The notes beneath the pieces were generated by a model that saw nothing but the letters and a program-made list of their open reading frames with translations, made no database searches and had not been told where the DNA came from. Below, piece by piece: positions 1,633 to 8,759 of a DNA stretch of 64,000 bases (position 1 is its first letter; every line of letters begins with the position of its first letter). The position numbers and the translations under genes are program-made. Origin of the DNA: a virus; IMG/VR virus record IMGVR_UViG_3300028920_000006, positions 7,843-71,842 of that record. One strand, written 5' to 3'.

Positions 1633-2641
<1,009 letters not shown>

Positions 2642-2658
<17 letters not shown>

Positions 2659-2785
2659 CAGTCTTCTCCCTTCTATACCTTGCTACTACCTTCCCTATAA
2701 TGTGCGCTGCGCAGTCTAGTAGGACGAGGAACCACAGACTACCAACCACTATCAACAGACCCAGTCCTATTGTGTTTCTCGTCAC
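2642..2785 (-). CDS. small putative membrane protein (47 aa)
   Basis: GTG start overlapping upstream stop; hydrophobic stretch IGLGLLIVVGSLWFLVLL; manual translation. Confidence 0.4.
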
Positions 2786-3294
2786 TTCCTCTTCCTCCTA
2801 ACCTTTGTCTTCCTATCTACCCTCCTCTCCATTCGTTTGTCCAGTTCCCTTCTCAAGTCCCGCGGAACAGATGGTGTGGCGAAGTATTCTTGGTTGCAGA
2901 GTTGCACCATATCCCTCAACACATCCTTCCTCTGCCTGAACGCCGTTACCGCGTCATACAGTATGTCCCGCTCGTACATGGCCCTATCCAATTCATCCTT
3001 AGCCGCCAGATGATCAGGGTGTGTCCTGTAATATGCTTCCAACTGCGGTCCTGTTGGAACCTTGCCGGACGCTTTAATCTTCTTGCTTACCAAACCTGGT
3101 CTGGCGATCCCCTTGTTGATCAGCTTGGAACGCATCACCTTTACTTTTTCTTCTGCCTGTCGTACCTTGCGTTCTGCACGACGGTAGAGCCTACTCCATT
3201 TCAGGAACAAGTTGGGCTGTATTAACAATTCCACATCCAGAGCTGAAGGGTCAATTGACAGTTCTTCTTCGTAATCGTATTTTGTTTTTCCCAT
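2782..3294 (-). CDS. UvsY-like recombination mediator
   Basis: Helical 170 aa protein (LSID..LD.E...QP, AFRQRKDVL) adjacent to SSB and recA. Confidence 0.55.
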   Translation of the reverse strand: MGKTKYDYEEELSIDPSALDVELLIQPNLFLKWSRLYRRAERKVRQAEEKVKVMRSKLINKGIARPGLVSKKIKASGKVPTGPQLEAYYRTHPDHLAAKDELDRAMYERDILYDAVTAFRQRKDVLRDMVQLCNQEYFATPSVPRDLRRELDKRMERRVDRKTKVRRKRK

Positions 3295-3326: not shown

Positions 3327-5426
3327 CTACTTGCTATTTACAATTTCAAAGCAGGAAAGGGTTAGACCAGTCTTCCCACTGTCATAGTAGGGTTCGCTGA
3401 AAGCCACGGCGATTTTGTATGCTCTCCCGTTCCCTTTCAACATGGCTGTGTTACAACAGGCTAGAACGATACGTCTTATGCTTTCCGGTTCGTGCTCTTC
3501 AAGCAGTTGCTTTATCTTATCAGCGACCAGCCGCCATGGTCTTTTCTTGATGAGCAGTATGAACAATTCGTGAGCACCTGACTGTTCTTCCTCAGCAAAC
3601 TTCACAGCCTGCTTCATGTCATTCTTGGGCAAGTCGATTATCTTGTCCATAAGCATGAGTGCCACACCCAGAGAACCTTCGCTGGTTTCTGCTATCTGTT
3701 CCCTGATGGACTTGGGAACATCCTTGCCATACTTCTTTGCGATACTCCTCAGATGTTTTACTATCGTTTCCTCGTTCACAGGCTTGACCACGTAGGGACT
3801 GCAACGCCGTTTTAGAGTAGGCCGTAGCTTCCCTGGATTGGTCGTAGCGAGGACGAAGAATGTGTGGCGGGGTGTATCCTCCAGCAATTTCAACAAGGCT
3901 TCCTGTGCGTCCCCTGTAAGCTTGTGGCAATTATGAACAAGAAACCCATTGGCAAAATAAGAAGGGTGCCCCTCTATTTCTAGATCATAAAATGTTACGA
4001 AGCCTCGACTTCTTTCGTTATCTCCGATAACACTCGCGAAAGATCTGTCATTATTTCCTCGTTGGTAAATCTCAACACTTTCCACCCTAACTTGTTCAAA
4101 GCTCTCGTCTTTTTCACATCTTTCGATATAATCTTTTTCGTCCTGTGCATTCTCCCGTCTACTTCTATGGCAATTAAATCCTTCTTTGACCCTATGTCCA
4201 CTTTGTAACAAGTCGGGAACCCCTTTTTCCTTGTTCCCAGAGATATGGCCACTTCCGTAGGCCAACCTAGAGCCATCGACAGTACTCTTTGAGGCTCTGT
4301 TATCTTTCCGTTCCCTCCCTGTTCTCCAGAGAACCCTTTCAGTGTACCATTCATCCTCTTCGTTGACCTCATCTTTTCTACCGTTTTCGGGTCGGACATC
4401 GGATTTTCCTTTAACATTCTTCTGGAAGATCTTTTTGCGTGTTCTTTGCCCTTTCTTGTCATCACATATTTCCGTAATGCTTGTGATAGCTTTTGTGCAC
4501 GTTTCTTCGTGTACATCTTTGCCCGAATTGACGGGACTTTCGTTCTCCATTTCCCCACACAATGCTGACTGCAAAACTTTGGTTTGTGAGGTTGTCTGTC
4601 TACTCGACATTTCTTTCTTGTTACTTTTCTCCCGCATTCCGTACACTGAAACGTCACCATTCGCCCCAGACCTTGGTCTCTGTCTCTTTGTGCCTTTGCA
4701 CACTTCTTCGAACACGTCTTTTGGGTCTGTTTTTTCAGCTTGAATTTCGTCCCGCATATTGGGCATGACTTGATTGTTCTTCGTCGTACTGTCATTGCTT
4801 ACCTCCCCTGTCTGTAAATTATTGGCTTGCATTGTATTACAAATGACGCAGGGGAGTAAAGCATTATTCTTCACTAAATTTTGCGCTTCGATCCAGCCCG
4901 TCTGTGTCAAGAACATATGTTCTTTTGTGGTGAACAAGACTCTGCCATTGCTGAATCTTACTTTGACCACTCGTTCCAATATGACATTGTTCCTGAAGAC
5001 AGACATCACCCTGGCATCTTCTCCTCTTATTGAAGATACACATTGCCCCGGTTCCACTTTTGATATACTTATGACACCGTCTCTAGTATTGACTTCTGTG
5101 TGCTCAGCGAAGCACTCGTCAAGCAGGTATACTTTGTTCTTGCAGAAGATTGGCTTGAGTTTGACTTGTGCGCGAATCTCACGTGCTGTTTCAACCCCGC
5201 GGAAGTCGGCTGTGTTAAGCTCGTGAAAGTCAACTCCCTTTGCGCCAAGAGAAGCTCCGACAATTCTCGCCAGTGTAGTCTTACCACATCCTTTAGGTCC
5301 AGTGAACAGGTATGCATGAGCTATCCCTTTCTTGCGACCAAGCATAGCCCGTAGTTCTGCAACCGTGCTTTCATTCCCAACAATGTCATCCAACGTCTGC
5401 GGTCTGTAGTCAAGGTGTAGTGGCAC
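3327..5426 (-). CDS. dnaX: DnaX/RFC-like clamp loader AAA+ subunit, intein-containing
   Basis: YRPQTLDDIVGN, HAYLFTGPKGCGKT, LLDE|CH Walker B after intein removal, ALLKLLED, LATT, RRC. Confidence 0.9.
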   Translation of the reverse strand: MPLHLDYRPQTLDDIVGNESTVAELRAMLGRKKGIAHAYLFTGPKGCGKTTLARIVGASLGAKGVDFHELNTADFRGVETAREIRAQVKLKPIFCKNKVYLLDECFAEHTEVNTRDGVISISKVEPGQCVSSIRGEDARVMSVFRNNVILERVVKVRFSNGRVLFTTKEHMFLTQTGWIEAQNLVKNNALLPCVICNTMQANNLQTGEVSNDSTTKNNQVMPNMRDEIQAEKTDPKDVFEEVCKGTKRQRPRSGANGDVSVYGMREKSNKKEMSSRQTTSQTKVLQSALCGEMENESPVNSGKDVHEETCTKAITSITEICDDKKGQRTRKKIFQKNVKGKSDVRPENGRKDEVNEEDEWYTERVLWRTGRERKDNRASKSTVDGSRLAYGSGHISGNKEKGVPDLLQSGHRVKEGFNCHRSRRENAQDEKDYIERCEKDESFEQVRVESVEIYQRGNNDRSFASVIGDNERSRGFVTFYDLEIEGHPSYFANGFLVHNCHKLTGDAQEALLKLLEDTPRHTFFVLATTNPGKLRPTLKRRCSPYVVKPVNEETIVKHLRSIAKKYGKDVPKSIREQIAETSEGSLGVALMLMDKIIDLPKNDMKQAVKFAEEEQSGAHELFILLIKKRPWRLVADKIKQLLEEHEPESIRRIVLACCNTAMLKGNGRAYKIAVAFSEPYYDSGKTGLTLSCFEIVNSK
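3930..5114 (-). mobile_element. intein (395 aa) inserted in Walker B of the clamp loader
   Basis: N-terminal CFAEHTEV, block B TKEHMF, C-terminal FYDLEIEGHPSYFANGFLVHN followed by +1 Cys. Confidence 0.92.
3995..4795 (-). CDS. Vsr/DUF559-like (EDxHD-type) endonuclease with Zn-ribbon N-terminus, nested in the +1 frame inside the intein
   Basis: CPICG..CSKKC and CTECG..FCSQHC; VDI..IAIEVDGRMH..D..K..LNKLGWKVLRFTNEEI; own GGGGAGGT RBS. Confidence 0.85.
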   Translation of the reverse strand: MTVRRRTIKSCPICGTKFKLKKQTQKTCSKKCAKAQRDRDQGLGRMVTFQCTECGRKVTRKKCRVDRQPHKPKFCSQHCVGKWRTKVPSIRAKMYTKKRAQKLSQALRKYVMTRKGKEHAKRSSRRMLKENPMSDPKTVEKMRSTKRMNGTLKGFSGEQGGNGKITEPQRVLSMALGWPTEVAISLGTRKKGFPTCYKVDIGSKKDLIAIEVDGRMHRTKKIISKDVKKTRALNKLGWKVLRFTNEEIMTDLSRVLSEITKEVEAS

Positions 5427-5661: not shown

Positions 5662-5933
5662 CTGCTTCTCCTCCTTCTCTTTGGCCAGAACTCTGCTTGT
5701 TTGGGATCAGGTACATCGTCTGCTTTTGTTTCCGGTATACAATCCACAGCTACTGACCAAGGGAATACTGGTTTGAATGTCAAATGGCTGAATTGATCAT
5801 TCATAGAACGCATCTGAAGGTTCTTACCATGACTCCATAGTTCAATCCTCATCCCGTTGTCCAGTGTGAGCATGAACTTCTTTATGCCCTTGCGGATGTA
5901 TTCCTTACCCTTCTTTTCGTACGTTATCTTCAT
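5658..5933 (-). CDS. hypothetical protein
   Basis: ATGA overlap with polA stop; start re-called at MKITYE. Confidence 0.55.
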   Translation of the reverse strand: MKITYEKKGKEYIRKGIKKFMLTLDNGMRIELWSHGKNLQMRSMNDQFSHLTFKPVFPWSVAVDCIPETKADDVPDPKQAEFWPKRRRRSR

Positions 5934-7312
5934 GCCACCAGTTCTACTCCTTTCGCTTTCCACCAGCTTTCACCCGGCCCCGCTACTTCTGCTTCTACTT
6001 CCAACTGTGTGATAATCCAAGGCCAGTGTTTCTTTATGGATACACACATTGTCTTCTGGGCGATTGCCAACACGTCATCGAGTTCGCCCATCGCCACGTT
6101 GATTATGATACTGTCATGTATCTGCCCTATGATACGTGACTTCATTTTGTGTTTCTTGAAATACTTGTTGAGTTGGATCAAGCTCCAGAGTGTGCAGTGG
6201 AATGCCACACCCTGAGAAGGATAGTTGATACATTCGTTCCGTGTCATAAACCCTGTGAATCTGAACCCGCTCAAACACTTCGTGTACCCCTTCCGCAAGT
6301 AATCCCTGTACCAATCCTCCCGCCATCGCCCATACTTTTCAAACTTCTCATTCCAGTACCAGTCCTCCACGGATTCTACGTGTGGTTCATATTCGTCCAG
6401 AGATTCTATCCTCTTGTTGGCTAAGTGATCCAACATTGGTGTCCCATCCGCAGTCACCAATCCTTCACCGGCATATTCCCACAGATCTTTTGCTGCGGCT
6501 TCGTATCCCCCGCCATACTGTTCCCGGAAGACGAACTTGTTCTTGGCACCCCACCTGATGTCCTTGTATGTATCGGACCCCTTCTTCCCCATCTCCTTGG
6601 CTTTTAGTTTGAACAGTCTCTTTGCCAAGTCCCTGTGGATGTCCCGTTTTGGGTCGGCGAGTTCAGCCATCATGTTTGGATCTTGGTGATACCAAGTTGC
6701 AGCATGGACTTCTAATCTACCGTAGTCCAGTTCCACTAACTGGTCTGATGGTTTGTGTGCTATGATGGCTCTACGGATTATCTTTGCCATGTCCTTCCTA
6801 CGCTTGTCGAAGTTATGAGGGTTAGGCCAAGACCCACTACTTCTGTAACTCTTCACAGTGTGCAGTTCCAAGAATGGATGCATAATACCATCCACAGATT
6901 CTCGGTACATGCCATACAGCTTCTTCCTGACCCGATCCAGTTGCTTGATACGGATAATCCTTTTAACTGTTGAATCGTCTATCTGTGCGAGCGCTTCTTC
7001 CTTAGCCGAAGGTTTGTTTGTCTTTGCTGTGAAGACCTTGGCTTTGTATCCCATATGATTGAATAGGATATCAGCAAGCTGCTCATTGGAATCAGGGTTG
7101 AACTTGTTTCCCTTGATCTTAGTCCACCGTTTCATTATCTTGGACTTCTTTACTTTGGCGCGTAGCTTGTCTATCTGCTTACCCAATCTCCCCAATTCAC
7201 ATTCACAATAGAATGTGTCCAACCTCATGCCAGTGTCTTCTATGTCTGCGAAAGCAATGGATCCTTCGTGGAACAGTTTGTATGCATCAAGCCGTGTTGC
7301 AATTATCTTCAA
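5930..7312 (-). CDS. polA: family A DNA polymerase, polymerase domain only
   Basis: YRSS..PNPHN, motif A LDYGRLE, motif B R..AKNKFVF..QYG, NYPSQG, motif C IHDS. Confidence 0.9.
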   Translation of the reverse strand: MKIIATRLDAYKLFHEGSIAFADIEDTGMRLDTFYCECELGRLGKQIDKLRAKVKKSKIMKRWTKIKGNKFNPDSNEQLADILFNHMGYKAKVFTAKTNKPSAKEEALAQIDDSTVKRIIRIKQLDRVRKKLYGMYRESVDGIMHPFLELHTVKSYRSSGSWPNPHNFDKRRKDMAKIIRRAIIAHKPSDQLVELDYGRLEVHAATWYHQDPNMMAELADPKRDIHRDLAKRLFKLKAKEMGKKGSDTYKDIRWGAKNKFVFREQYGGGYEAAAKDLWEYAGEGLVTADGTPMLDHLANKRIESLDEYEPHVESVEDWYWNEKFEKYGRWREDWYRDYLRKGYTKCLSGFRFTGFMTRNECINYPSQGVAFHCTLWSLIQLNKYFKKHKMKSRIIGQIHDSIIINVAMGELDDVLAIAQKTMCVSIKKHWPWIITQLEVEAEVAGPGESWWKAKGVELVA

Positions 7313-7512
7313 TCTCTCCTCCCCACTAATGCCACACCTTCAAACTTCTTTCGCAGAGCCGCCCATGACCGTTCACTGTCGATGATTAGAAAATATGGAT
7401 ATTCATCCACCAATTCCAACAAAGGATCATCATTCACCATAGCTTTGGCTTTCACCCTTAGTGATATGTCAGAACAGTTTATCGAAAACCGGTCCATCCC
7501 TTCTTTGGTCAT
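7309..7512 (-). CDS. hypothetical protein between the two polymerase halves
   Basis: 67 aa, 4-nt overlaps with both neighbours. Confidence 0.5.
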   Translation of the reverse strand: MTKEGMDRFSINCSDISLRVKAKAMVNDDPLLELVDEYPYFLIIDSERSWAALRKKFEGVALVGRRD

Positions 7513-8759
7513 TGTTCTACTCCCATCTCTCTTAGTTGATCTTCAAGCAACCAGAATTCCAACAGGGAATCACAACCACAATAAACAAGGAGTTGATCCA
7601 GTGGAGCGTTTTCAATGTCATTCATTGCATTAGCTCCTAACTTCTTGGGTGTCTCTAACCATTTTCGCATATGACTGGCGTAGTCCATCACTCCGTAACG
7701 CACACACCCTTGGAACTTGATACTGGTGATGCCTGACCGGTTGTCTTGTACATGGTTGCAGATCATGGTATCCCATCCCCATGGTCTTATTCTGTATCCA
7801 AGAATGGTTCTGGCCCATGACTCTTCAAAGTTTATCTTCTGAGCTACTTTCTTTATCCTCCTGTGTCTGAAAACTTTCCTAAGCAGCTTCTTATTTGCAC
7901 AGGACATAGGGAATACATACGCTTTGTCCCTACGCCAGCAAACGGACACACAAAGGATTCTGTGACCTTGTTTGTGTGGTTTAAGGCCCGTGGTTTCAAA
8001 GTCCGTTACAAGCCATTCTGGTGGGTTTCTAAGTATGTTTTGCAGTAGCTTTGTAACAGCCTTTTTGCTGGTAAGGCATTTAACCATGTCGCGGAGGTCC
8101 ACTCGTTCGGGTAGGGGTTTCTTTCTCTTGGCAATGGCTTTCTTAAGATGTTTGCGTATGAGCACTTCTGCTGCGTTTCCTTGTCTCTGTTCATGACGCA
8201 TAGCAAAAGAGGGATGGTACGTAGGGCAGACCCAAGCATTCACATCGTAGTCTGGTATTGTCCACCCTATCCATTGTGATATCTTCCCCATCCTGCGCTT
8301 CCACCTGTGACCGTACAGACAATCTATGGCAGCTTGTCCCATAGGTATGATCACTTTGGGTTTGACATCAGTTATGGTTTTCCACACACGAGGTCTACAT
8401 GCTTTGACCTCCCTACCGGATGGAGGACGGTTTGCTCCGCTCTTGTTTGTGGGTCTGCAATTGATAGCATTTATCTTAAAGAAGTCACGGTCTAGGTCAT
8501 ACCCCATATCATCCAGTATGTCACGGAAGTACTCCCCCACACGACCTACCAGTTGTACCCCTCTGAAGTCTTCTTCTTCACCGGGAGCTTCAGCTATGAA
8601 TAGGATCTTTTTCTTACCCTTACCGGTCACCTTCATCTTTGGTGACCGGACGTTACGATGCAAACCGCAATCAGAACAGGTCAGGGCATGTTTGCCCGCT
8701 CCCATACTGAATGCCTTGTTGGACCTCTGCGGCCAGAAAAACCCTTCCCGCTCAGCCAT
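7509..8759 (-). CDS. family 4 uracil-DNA glycosylase-like domain fused to DnaQ-like 3'-5' exonuclease (SPO1-type polymerase N-half)
   Basis: CSDCGL, AEAPG.EED, NCRP..NRPP..EVKAC, TYHPS; then ExoI DFETTG, WDTM, ExoIII YCGCD. Confidence 0.88.
   Translation of the reverse strand: MAEREGFFWPQRSNKAFSMGAGKHALTCSDCGLHRNVRSPKMKVTGKGKKKILFIAEAPGEEEDFRGVQLVGRVGEYFRDILDDMGYDLDRDFFKINAINCRPTNKSGANRPPSGREVKACRPRVWKTITDVKPKVIIPMGQAAIDCLYGHRWKRRMGKISQWIGWTIPDYDVNAWVCPTYHPSFAMRHEQRQGNAAEVLIRKHLKKAIAKRKKPLPERVDLRDMVKCLTSKKAVTKLLQNILRNPPEWLVTDFETTGLKPHKQGHRILCVSVCWRRDKAYVFPMSCANKKLLRKVFRHRRIKKVAQKINFEESWARTILGYRIRPWGWDTMICNHVQDNRSGITSIKFQGCVRYGVMDYASHMRKWLETPKKLGANAMNDIENAPLDQLLVYCGCDSLLEFWLLEDQLREMGVEQ

Follow-up and report, generated by a model that had tools for sequence, protein, structure and literature searches.

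A selfish genetic unit, combining an intein with a homing-endonuclease gene written over it in an overlapping frame, very probably occupies the Walker-B motif of a phage clamp-loader gene. The gene lies on the minus strand, as do all features described here, of a 64,000-nt stretch of viral DNA (the window; IMG/VR record IMGVR_UViG_3300028920_000006, positions 7,843 to 71,842). The intein is one contiguous reading frame with intact splicing residues, while its middle is predicted to be disordered in the intein frame and encodes a complete Vsr-type nuclease in the +1 frame. The evidence comes from sequence families, predicted folds, stop-codon statistics and comparison with related loci.

The clamp-loader precursor and its intein

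The precursor ORF comprises 699 codons from a GTG start (3327..5426, minus strand) and encodes an N-extein, the intein and a C-extein. Its product matches the Pfam families DNA_pol3_delta2 (1.4e-15), Intein_splicing (4.4e-12) and AAA (1.8e-11), as well as the clamp-loader family phrog_5846 of PHROGs (1.9e-57). In translation, the N-extein (residues 1-104; 5115..5426) carries a GPKGCGKTT P-loop and closes with the Walker-B residues LLDE. The C-extein (3327..3929, stop codon included), delimited by translation and by its relatives, begins with CHKLTGDAQ. Sequence comparison finds an unbroken ..DE|CHKLTGDAQ in intein-free clamp-loader relatives, and the insertion point of the intein is the Walker-B DE|CH site of the clamp loader.

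The intein extends over 395 codons, from Cys1 to His394-Asn395 (Cys105 to Asn499 of the precursor; nt 5114..3930), and is followed by the Cys+1 codon at 3927-3929. An earlier note on this DNA had described it as open throughout, with intact splicing motifs, and comparison bears this out: C1, H66 of block B, D377 of block F, H394 and N395 are invariant across 13 aligned inteins, T or S stands three residues ahead of H66, and Cys follows Asn395. These are the residues of a class-1 intein (Cys1, block-B T/S-x-x-H, block-F Asp, His-Asn and Cys+1). Foldseek agrees with this assignment, as the top matches of the intein model are inteins, with 29 matches at E <= 0.001, and the best is the gp41-1 intein 6qaz (E 4.7e-7, rmsd 1.8).

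In the AF2 model, the two halves of the intein are predicted to form a Hint fold. The N-terminal subdomain (residues 1-90; 4845..5114) is modelled entirely as beta strands, with pLDDT means of 79-96 over 10-residue blocks. The C-terminal subdomain (residues 322-395; 3930..4151), which holds blocks F and G and ends in ..LVHN, has block means of 75-95 and is conserved in 13 of 13 inteins. Between them, the intein-frame linker (residues 91-321; 4152..4844) is hydrophilic and unconserved, and is predicted to be disordered, with pLDDT below 50. The Pfam search of the 699-codon ORF found no family match in this middle, which is as featureless as the earlier note had it. Freedom from stops is the only property maintained in the linker. 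A canonical full-length intein with an in-frame endonuclease was considered and rejected, the middle having no family match and the nuclease lying in the +1 frame.

The nested nuclease gene

Within the intein ORF, a second gene of 266 codons and a TAA stop (3995..4795, minus strand) is assigned to the homing endonucleases by Pfam, profile and fold comparison. It lies in the +1 frame of the precursor, since (5426-4795) mod 3 = 1. The earlier note had read it as a Zn-ribbon plus Vsr/DUF559 nuclease with its own ribosome-binding site, start and stop, and each of these elements is found. Pfam matches DUF559 at residues 196-263 (7.1e-14), so that the HMM search of both frames which had been proposed returns a family in each, Intein_splicing in one and DUF559 in the other. 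The nuclease profile matches 3hrl (1.7e-9) and 3r3p (2.7e-4) in the PDB. The AF2 model of the nuclease has a mean pLDDT of 84.8, whereas the same DNA read in the intein frame (residues 91-321) remains below 50, and its best fold match in Foldseek is I-Bth0305I (3r3p; probability 1.00, TM 0.60 on target, identity about 24%).

Alignment delimits two Zn-ribbon modules (C11, C14, C28, C32 and C51, C54, C75, C79; 4559..4765), whose eight cysteines are all invariant in 11 nuclease sequences. The predicted catalytic domain (residues 196-263; 4007..4210) agrees in sequence and fold with the Vsr-like/EDxHD type (DUF559, PF04480), as indicated by the Pfam match, the alignment, and the profile and fold matches. 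Four of its residues, E211, D213, H217 and D226, do not vary among the 11 sequences and are read, from the alignment to 3r3p and 3hrl, as the probable EDxHD residues; an RFTNEEIMT stretch is also conserved. The label ‘HNH endonuclease’ for the nuclease N-terminus (PHROGs phrog_1271, 3.3e-9) was rejected, because the match is limited to the Zn-ribbon and helical region and Pfam returns no HNH family. No further copies of the nuclease were found elsewhere in the phage genome.

Signals for separate translation are located within the intein coding frame. A GGAGG Shine-Dalgarno motif, identified by eye (4802..4806), stands 6 nt upstream of the nuclease ATG, and a TAA in the nuclease frame stands two codons ahead of this ATG. 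Purine-rich motifs similar to GGAGG precede the ATG in most related loci, and in most of them the nuclease frame is open only from a few codons before the start. Both the upstream stop near the ATG and the late opening of the nuclease frame fit independent initiation. The region also contains a weak sigma-70-like promoter match (9/12, at 4860->4831, minus strand) and a weak hairpin (3975->3960, minus strand), a candidate terminator. Promoter-like sites number 8, against 3.5 +/- 1.7 in shuffles, which is too weak for the claim of an own promoter or terminator. Among sequencing runs, a search listed no RNA run containing this stretch.

Selection on the two frames

The 266 overlapping codons contain 0 stops in the intein frame and 25 in the third frame. 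The expected number of stops in the intein frame is 9.3 when synonymous codons are permuted within the ORF, 11.8 when codon order is shuffled, and 18.1 when synonymous codons are resampled with the codon usage of the window. Absence of stops was reached in 0 of 20000 trials of each of the three kinds of shuffle, and stop avoidance in the intein frame is far beyond chance. In the nuclease frame, T-ending codons are followed by a codon starting with AA, AG or GA in 0 of 35 cases, with 90 of the 266 codons starting in this way.

Selection was gauged from codon-position divergence and from identity per frame. Over 55 pairs, mean pairwise divergence at nuclease codon positions 1, 2 and 3 is 0.443, 0.384 and 0.558, respectively, and amino-acid identity is 0.445 in the nuclease frame versus 0.271 in the intein frame; in the linker region the corresponding ranges are 0.33-0.55 and 0.20-0.28. 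Substitutions track the nuclease frame, the one under protein selection, and their pattern fits purifying selection.

The end of the overlap (3995..4151), where nuclease residues 216-266 lie over the folded intein residues 322-373, is constrained differently. Divergence at nuclease third codon positions is 0.39 there, down from 0.59-0.62, and reaches 0.29 over the final 31 codons, and intein-frame identity goes up to 0.47-0.60. Constraint acts on both frames across the final ~50 codons of the overlap. That the nuclease 3′ end covers the C-terminal Hint part had been seen correctly in the earlier note. Its further proposal of 800 nt of dual coding, with a junk translation removed by splicing, holds for the overlap itself and for the disordered middle, but not for these last ~50 codons, which are not junk and encode a folded and conserved intein subdomain.

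Nested, free-standing and decayed relatives

Related loci were found via conserved nuclease peptide patterns. Of those examined, 38 further loci share the layout, with a clamp loader or an SF2 helicase as host. Nesting at +1 recurs in 16 of 16 IMG/VR loci, in both of 2 further intein-bearing clamp loaders, in all 3 phage records inspected among the 40 GenBank records that match, and in 17 of 34 genome loci, the remaining 17 nucleases being free-standing. Because the search used nuclease peptides, ‘always nested, always +1’ holds only for loci that such patterns can find. Nuclease identity among the 38 loci, which come from separate assemblies, is 30-55%, and 11 aligned nuclease sequences are 34-50% identical to the nuclease of 3995..4795.

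The nested loci have 0 host-frame stops in 29 of 29 counted, over 200-340 codons, as against 9-29 stops in the corresponding frame of the free-standing homologues (n=17). Permutation supports stop avoidance in 14 of 14 loci tested (0 of 5000 trials each). Of 23 clamp-loader relatives retrieved by way of the C-extein, 21 lack the intein, a sporadic distribution such as would be that of a mobile element, and 19 intein-free alleles share a conserved candidate target, GAYGAR|TGYCAY. A nuclease tree built by a quick method, leaving out L002, L005, L014-L016, L044, L056 and L057 (duplicates or near-copies) and L013 (a remnant), roughly tracks the clamp-loader type inside the clamp-loader clade.

Loci L013-L016 encode a mini-intein of 178 residues that has lost the first ~190 nuclease codons by a deletion in phase with the intein frame; the linker is gone and one continuous ORF is retained. 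They are a decay form of the intein/nuclease unit. What they keep of the nuclease is exactly its C-terminal third.

Two database proteins, P0040, from a ‘near’ search, and P0076, the sole match of a longer-protein search, read from the host frame through the linker into the nuclease C-terminus. They were rejected as true in-frame inteins and are taken to be frameshifted or erroneous, because both terminate where the nuclease does. Annotation of the three GenBank phage records shows only helicase or hypothetical CDSs over the nuclease match, which leaves a widespread endonuclease family unannotated.

Proposed mechanism and alternative explanations

These observations can be assembled into one scheme. 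Ribosomes would traverse the 395-codon intein in the clamp-loader ORF without a break, and the Hint halves (1-90 and 322-395) would fold around a disordered linker of ~230 residues. The exteins would then be spliced into a clamp loader of ~304 residues, as the intact catalytic residues and the predicted fold suggest. The linker DNA, one base out of step, also encodes a complete endonuclease, in which two Zn ribbons and a helical region for DNA binding precede the Vsr/EDxHD catalytic domain; it is probably translated from its own ribosome-binding site and ATG on the same mRNA. By analogy with I-Bth0305I, this enzyme would cleave alleles that lack the intein, near GAYGAR|TGYCAY, and repair would copy the intein together with the nuclease gene into the cut allele. 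Selection bears on three things, namely the nuclease protein, the stop-free intein frame and, in the last ~50 overlapping codons, both proteins. For the unit as a whole, we infer splicing, separate translation and homing.

The earlier note had itself named what would overturn the overlap: two compensating indel errors of assembly or sequencing, shifting an in-frame nuclease out of the intein frame. No support for such an artefact was found. An error-made frame would hold about 9-18 stops where none is seen, and the recurrence of the +1 nesting in 38 separately assembled loci with divergent nucleases (30-55% identity) points the same way. A Logan contig, made by a different assembler from the same probable source run and so not an independent sample, is identical over 3900-5200 at a depth of ~100. 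The comparative data refute this explanation, which is excluded for all practical purposes. Under programmed ribosomal frameshifting, with a +1 shift to the nuclease frame and a later return, the product would be an intein of canonical form that contains its nuclease domain; the offset of +1 in every locus examined agrees with this, and P0040 and P0076 show that host-to-nuclease read-through does appear in databases. It is nevertheless highly improbable, as ribosomes leaving frame 0 would not keep 200-340 codons free of stops in 29 of 29 loci and two precise shifts would be required. A stop just upstream of the nuclease ATG, at this locus and in several relatives, and the conservation of the Shine-Dalgarno-like motif and ATG also argue against it, and no common slippery site was seen in the alignments by eye.

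A further explanation holds that the intein halves are made apart and joined by trans-splicing, as in ‘fractured genes’, the continuous ORF being incidental. The nearest solved intein, gp41-1, does come from a fractured gene with a free-standing endonuclease, as described in PMC2677866. Yet a stop after the N-terminal half occurs in 0 of 29 loci, which is unexpected unless read-through is needed, and the mini-inteins of L013-L016 keep one continuous ORF; this mode is very unlikely. It is also unlikely, if to a lesser degree, that the +1 ORF has lost its homing role or combines it with another, as a relic or as a nuclease recruited, for example, for competition between co-infecting phages. The truncated copies in L013-L016 speak for such a fate, as does the tree that roughly follows clamp-loader type, although vertical descent also gives that pattern. 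Against it stand the catalytic residues and eight Zn ligands, invariant in 11 sequences of 34-50% identity, substitutions that fit purifying selection on the nuclease frame, and the absence of the intein from 21 of 23 relatives, as for a mobile element; all of these would be compatible with a second role.

The favoured reading, an intein united with an overlapping homing-endonuclease gene, can be extended by a more speculative proposal, which we consider possible but doubtful: the +1 overlap, more than a chance by-product of invasion, would have arisen once as an interlock resistant to loss or swap, and would have spread among unrelated P-loop enzymes (clamp loaders, SF2 and SNF2 helicases) by targeting their common Walker-B DE|CH coding sequence. 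The nuclease gene could not be cleanly lost or swapped without harm to splicing, because its catalytic C-terminal third, the part retained in L013-L016, overlies the essential C-terminal subdomain of the intein.

Relation to known systems

The ‘distinct architecture’ claimed in the earlier note is indeed distinct from that of canonical inteins, but it has been described before. Out-of-frame and antisense intein endonucleases are reported in two bioRxiv preprints (10.1101/2025.01.02.630785 and 10.64898/2026.09.14.751524), both of which credit ‘Non-canonical inteins’ (Gorbalenya 1998) with first proposing that the endonucleases of inteins may lie in alternative ORFs. As cited there, the 1998 cases are of LAGLIDADG type, antisense ORFs among them; the present one is of Vsr type and on the same strand. 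The locus has the marks of a non-canonical intein, with a contiguous intein ORF between whose splicing blocks a whole nuclease ORF is set in a different frame, a nuclease frame that fits purifying selection and a predicted unstructured middle in the intein frame.

The cyanobacterial dnaX intein of Phillips et al. (2026; 10.64898/2026.09.14.751524), as presented there, resembles it in being contiguous within a clamp-loader gene, in its same-strand endonuclease ORF over a disordered middle, and in its frame-dependent selection, sporadic distribution and mini-intein forms. That endonuclease is a LAGLIDADG enzyme in a ‘+2 ORF’ of a cellular host (cyanobacteria), whereas the phage enzyme here is of Vsr/EDxHD type, carries Zn ribbons and is encoded in the +1 frame, at the Walker-B DE|CH site. 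Spl DnaX (7cfv), the only solved dnaX intein, gives a local match to the mini-intein (1.2e-4).

The actinobacteriophage inteins described by Gosselin, Arsenault and Gogarten (2025; 10.1101/2025.01.02.630785) likewise have an endonuclease outside the intein frame, an unstructured middle and Vsr-like nucleases. In their account the Vsr-like genes are on the antisense strand, unlike here, an endonuclease VII-like gene ‘in frame 3’ represents the same-strand arrangement, and the inteins reside in DNA polymerase, minor capsid, terminase and thymidylate synthase genes; no Vsr-type gene placed +1 on the same strand of a clamp loader or helicase is described in the passages covered. It proposes as origin a mini-intein invaded by a free-standing endonuclease gene, and discusses extein switching through nucleotide-binding sites.

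In fractured genes, as described by Dassa et al. (2009; PMC2677866), which are mostly phage replication genes, the two halves of a split intein are separated by a free-standing endonuclease gene of Vsr-like or GIY-YIG type. As here, the same nuclease family sits between Hint halves on the same strand, and the nuclease 3′ end covers the C-terminal intein part, there by 6-69 bp. In those genes, however, the host is split into two trans-splicing ORFs, whereas here one 699-codon ORF runs through and the whole 801-nt gene is overlapped. Two host ORFs flanking the nuclease are not found, and the host frame is free of stops in each of the 29 nested loci that were counted. The founding member of the EDxHD homing endonucleases, I-Bth0305I (Taylor et al. 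2011; PMC3239194), has the same order of an N-terminal DNA-binding region and a C-terminal Vsr-like domain; it resides in a recA group I intron and relies on NUMOD/HTH modules, in place of which two Zn ribbons are encoded here, inside an intein ORF. In the part of the literature covered, no paper was found on a same-strand Vsr/EDxHD gene in Walker-B inteins of clamp loaders or helicases. As far as these sources go, the architecture differs from that of canonical inteins, but the layout is already in print for other nucleases.

Implications

A gene nested within a longer ORF on the same strand goes unreported by gene callers, and inteins with such a nested nuclease may be scored as having ‘no endonuclease’. 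The nuclease family offers a clean natural case of long dual coding with a built-in control, since nested homologues have 0 stops where free-standing ones have 9-29, and along the overlap a gradient is visible from a ‘stop-free only’ constraint to a true two-protein constraint. In practical use, the Hint halves would accommodate a disordered insert of ~230 residues, if splicing proceeds as proposed, and the nuclease is a candidate long-site cutter for a conserved ATPase motif. The nested family connects split ‘fractured genes’ with contiguous inteins, and bears on how inteins acquire nucleases.

Overlapping genes in the clamp-loader locus

The virus record of the window is complete (71,842 bp, with direct terminal repeats), and the neighbours of the intein locus form a phage replication module comprising a UvsY-like protein, the clamp loader and a family-A DNA polymerase. 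The clamp-loader ORF (3327..5426, minus strand; 699 residues) matches Pfam DNA_pol3_delta2 (1.4e-15) and AAA (1.8e-11) as well as phrog_5846 (1.9e-57). An intein extending from Cys105 to Asn499 (nt 5114..3930, minus strand) is inserted inside the Walker-B motif, with LLDE upstream and CHKLTG downstream, in exact agreement with the coordinates 3930-5114 of an earlier note on this DNA. That note had also described the endonuclease as a separate +1-frame gene with its own RBS, lying within an intein with a featureless middle, and all of this is borne out. HMM searches of the two frames returned Intein_splicing (4.4e-12) in the host frame and DUF559 (7.1e-14, residues 196-263) in the +1 frame, where a nuclease ORF of 266 codons (3995..4795, minus strand) overlaps the equally intact intein frame. 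GGAGG lies 6 nt upstream of the nuclease ATG and a TAA in the nuclease frame two codons before it (both read by eye).

The AF2 model of the nuclease (mean pLDDT 84.8) finds as its top PDB match the catalytic domain of I-Bth0305I (3r3p, probability 1.00, TM 0.60 on the target), an enzyme characterised by Taylor et al. 2011 (PMC3239194, consulted in part), followed by 3hrl and Vsr; a profile search returned 3hrl at 1.7e-9 and 3r3p at 2.7e-4. In the intein model, residues 1-90 and 322-395 are predicted with confidence and linker residues 91-321 fall below pLDDT 50; the top structural matches of this model are inteins, gp41-1 first (6qaz, 4.7e-7).

By consensus match only, a sigma-70-like site (4831-4860, minus strand; 9-of-12) ends 36 nt upstream of the nuclease ATG, and a weak terminator-like hairpin (3960-3975, minus strand) lies directly 3′ of the nuclease stop, within the clamp-loader ORF. 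Elsewhere in the module, the family-A DNA polymerase occupies two minus-strand ORFs ~200 nt apart (5930-7312 and 7509-8759), one for a protein of 416 residues that combines UDG-superfamily (5.3e-22) and 3′-5′ exonuclease (5.7e-6) domains, the other for a polymerase domain of 460 residues (DNA_pol_A, 5.6e-35). A 341-residue protein (1633-2658, minus strand) ends in an Asp/Glu run of ~100 residues and a Lys-rich tip; PHROGs gave no match, and Pfam only a low-complexity one below cutoff (BUD22). Because it adjoins the UvsY-like gene (2782-3294; phrog_231, 2.4e-5), a role in replication or recombination is suggested.

Selection in the two frames

Within the overlap, selection keeps stops out of the intein frame and acts on the protein sequence of the nuclease frame. 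Stops number 0 in the intein frame and 25 in the third frame; three null models predict 9.3, 11.8 and 18.1 in the intein frame, and 0/20000 trials under each of them reached 0. The mechanism of stop avoidance is visible in the codons themselves: the nuclease has 35 codons with a final T, and in no case does the next codon begin with AA, AG or GA, although such codons make up 90 of all 266. Permutation at 14 loci gave 0/5000 trials with 0 stops at each locus, and a direct count found no host-frame stop in 29 nested genes (those inside a longer host ORF) versus 9-29 in 17 free-standing homologues.

Eleven nucleases borne by clamp loaders, compared in 55 pairs, diverge by 0.443, 0.384 and 0.558 at positions 1, 2 and 3 of the nuclease codons, and their amino-acid identity reaches 0.445 when read in the nuclease frame against 0.271 in the intein frame; the coding pattern therefore belongs to the nuclease frame. 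Eight Zn-ribbon cysteines, E211, D213, H217, D226 and RFTNEEIMT are invariant in the nuclease alignment.

Dual-coding constraint is uneven along the overlap. Over the linker, third-position divergence reaches 0.59-0.62 and intein-frame identity only 0.20-0.28. Where nuclease residues 216-266 overlie folded intein residues 322-373, the values are 0.386 and 0.465, and for the last 31 nuclease codons 0.286 and 0.596. In the stretch TTT ACN AAC GAG GAA ATA ATG, synonymous sites are near-frozen among sequences 34-50% identical to the window's nuclease. Since third-position divergence falls and intein-frame identity rises over residues 216-266, sequence comparison indicates that ~150 nt are under simultaneous constraint from two proteins. 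The earlier picture of 800 dual-coding bp thus holds for the two intact frames, but the intein translation is not junk throughout.

Relatives and distribution

A scan of IMG/VR with a nuclease peptide pattern yielded 16 loci (32-55% identity), including near-copies (L002 of L001, L005 of L004, L014-L016 of L013), and each of the 16 has its nuclease match inside a long ORF (509-748 codons) whose frame places the nuclease in +1. Pfam scanning of 14 host ORFs (L034, L035, L046 and eleven of the 16 loci above) identified clamp loaders in every case, 13 of them reaching Intein_splicing at 1e-6; intein boundaries in these relatives are always DE|C..VHN|CH.

The intein is patchily distributed and also exists in a decayed form. 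A C-extein scan, which relied on the peptide CHKLTGDA and is biased accordingly, gave 23 loci, 21 of them lacking the intein (DE|CHKLTGDAQ) and two carrying it together with +1 nuclease ORFs of 263 and 260 codons. In L013-L016, a deletion in phase with the intein has removed the nuclease start, the Zn ribbons and the ~190 first codons; the last 76 codons, including the doubly constrained stretch, are retained in a still open frame. These loci, whose clamp loaders are close to that of L012, hold a 178-residue mini-intein at the position that the window's intein occupies (e.g. L013:3505-4038), and the L013 mini-intein matches gp41-1 by sequence at 9.8e-7.

Nuclease matches were also obtained in 34 genome loci. 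The 17 closest are nested in +1 within host ORFs of 606-1064 codons (two of them, L044 and L057, duplicate IMG/VR contigs as judged from their length), and the 17 more distant are free-standing, with only 3-31 codons open in the host-equivalent frame. Besides clamp loaders and ResIII/Helicase_C helicases, the nested hosts comprise a helicase-DNA methylase fusion and an SNF2-related protein. These last two kinds of host carry the same unit of intein and +1 nuclease and are found at L054:2313-5504, L060:2-1819 and L047:879-3797, and the post-intein residue is Ser instead of Cys (VHN|S) in L054, L055 and L047.

GenBank phages contributed 40 matching records. Three of them were examined (Vibrio phage CP-T1 gp10, Corynebacterium phage phi673 gp43 and Vibrio phage 1.088.O); in each, a helicase-like CDS is annotated over the match, which lies in +1 relative to it. 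The CDS carries an intein at ..DE|CF..VHN|CHH, and a nuclease gene is annotated at the match in none of the three.

Two database proteins, P0040 (435 aa) and P0076 (480 aa), begin as a clamp loader or a helicase, run on through the intein linker, then continue in the nuclease frame as far as the nuclease stop; frameshifted alleles or errors in the reads probably account for them. The nuclease is present once in the window's phage genome. In sequencing run X1, besides a high-depth contig identical to the window over 3900-5200, a 744-nt contig (depth 7) and a 151-nt contig (depth 2) match window 4052-4174, where they cover the conserved C-terminal block of the nuclease only in part, and the sample may hold at least one diverged relative of the element.

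Evolution and proposed mechanism

A maximum-likelihood tree built by a quick method from 47 nuclease sequences (short search, no bootstrap), with the free-standing genes found by the scan as outgroup, has a branch (SH-aLRT 99) that separates all of the 30 nested genes from the 17 free-standing genes. It groups 17 clamp-loader-borne genes (96) and 11 helicase-borne genes with L047 (98), and the host label changes once. These sequence data fit a nested state that arose once and an element that passed at least once from one host family to another through the DE|CH site common to both. The intein would splice in cis across its disordered ~230-residue linker, and the nuclease would be translated by internal initiation at the +1 ATG. 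It would then cut the empty GAYGAR|TGYCAY site, into which the element would be copied.

The layout, once put forward as a distinct architecture, is confirmed, but architectures of this kind are already in print. The portions consulted of Gosselin, Arsenault and Gogarten (10.1101/2025.01.02.630785) describe inteins whose endonuclease is either antisense to the intein (LAGLIDADG and Vsr-like cases) or in another frame (an endonuclease VII-like gene in 'frame 3'), and those of Phillips, DeSimone and Gogarten (10.64898/2026.09.14.751524) a '+2 ORF' LAGLIDADG gene with frame-dependent selection in a cyanobacterial dnaX intein; both cite Gorbalenya 1998. A Vsr-like family between split intein halves appears in the part consulted of Dassa et al. 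2009 (PMC2677866). Within the literature searched, covered partially and without supplements, no description was found of a same-strand, +1, Vsr-type nuclease family in Walker-B inteins. The family to which the window's element belongs is large and for the most part unannotated.
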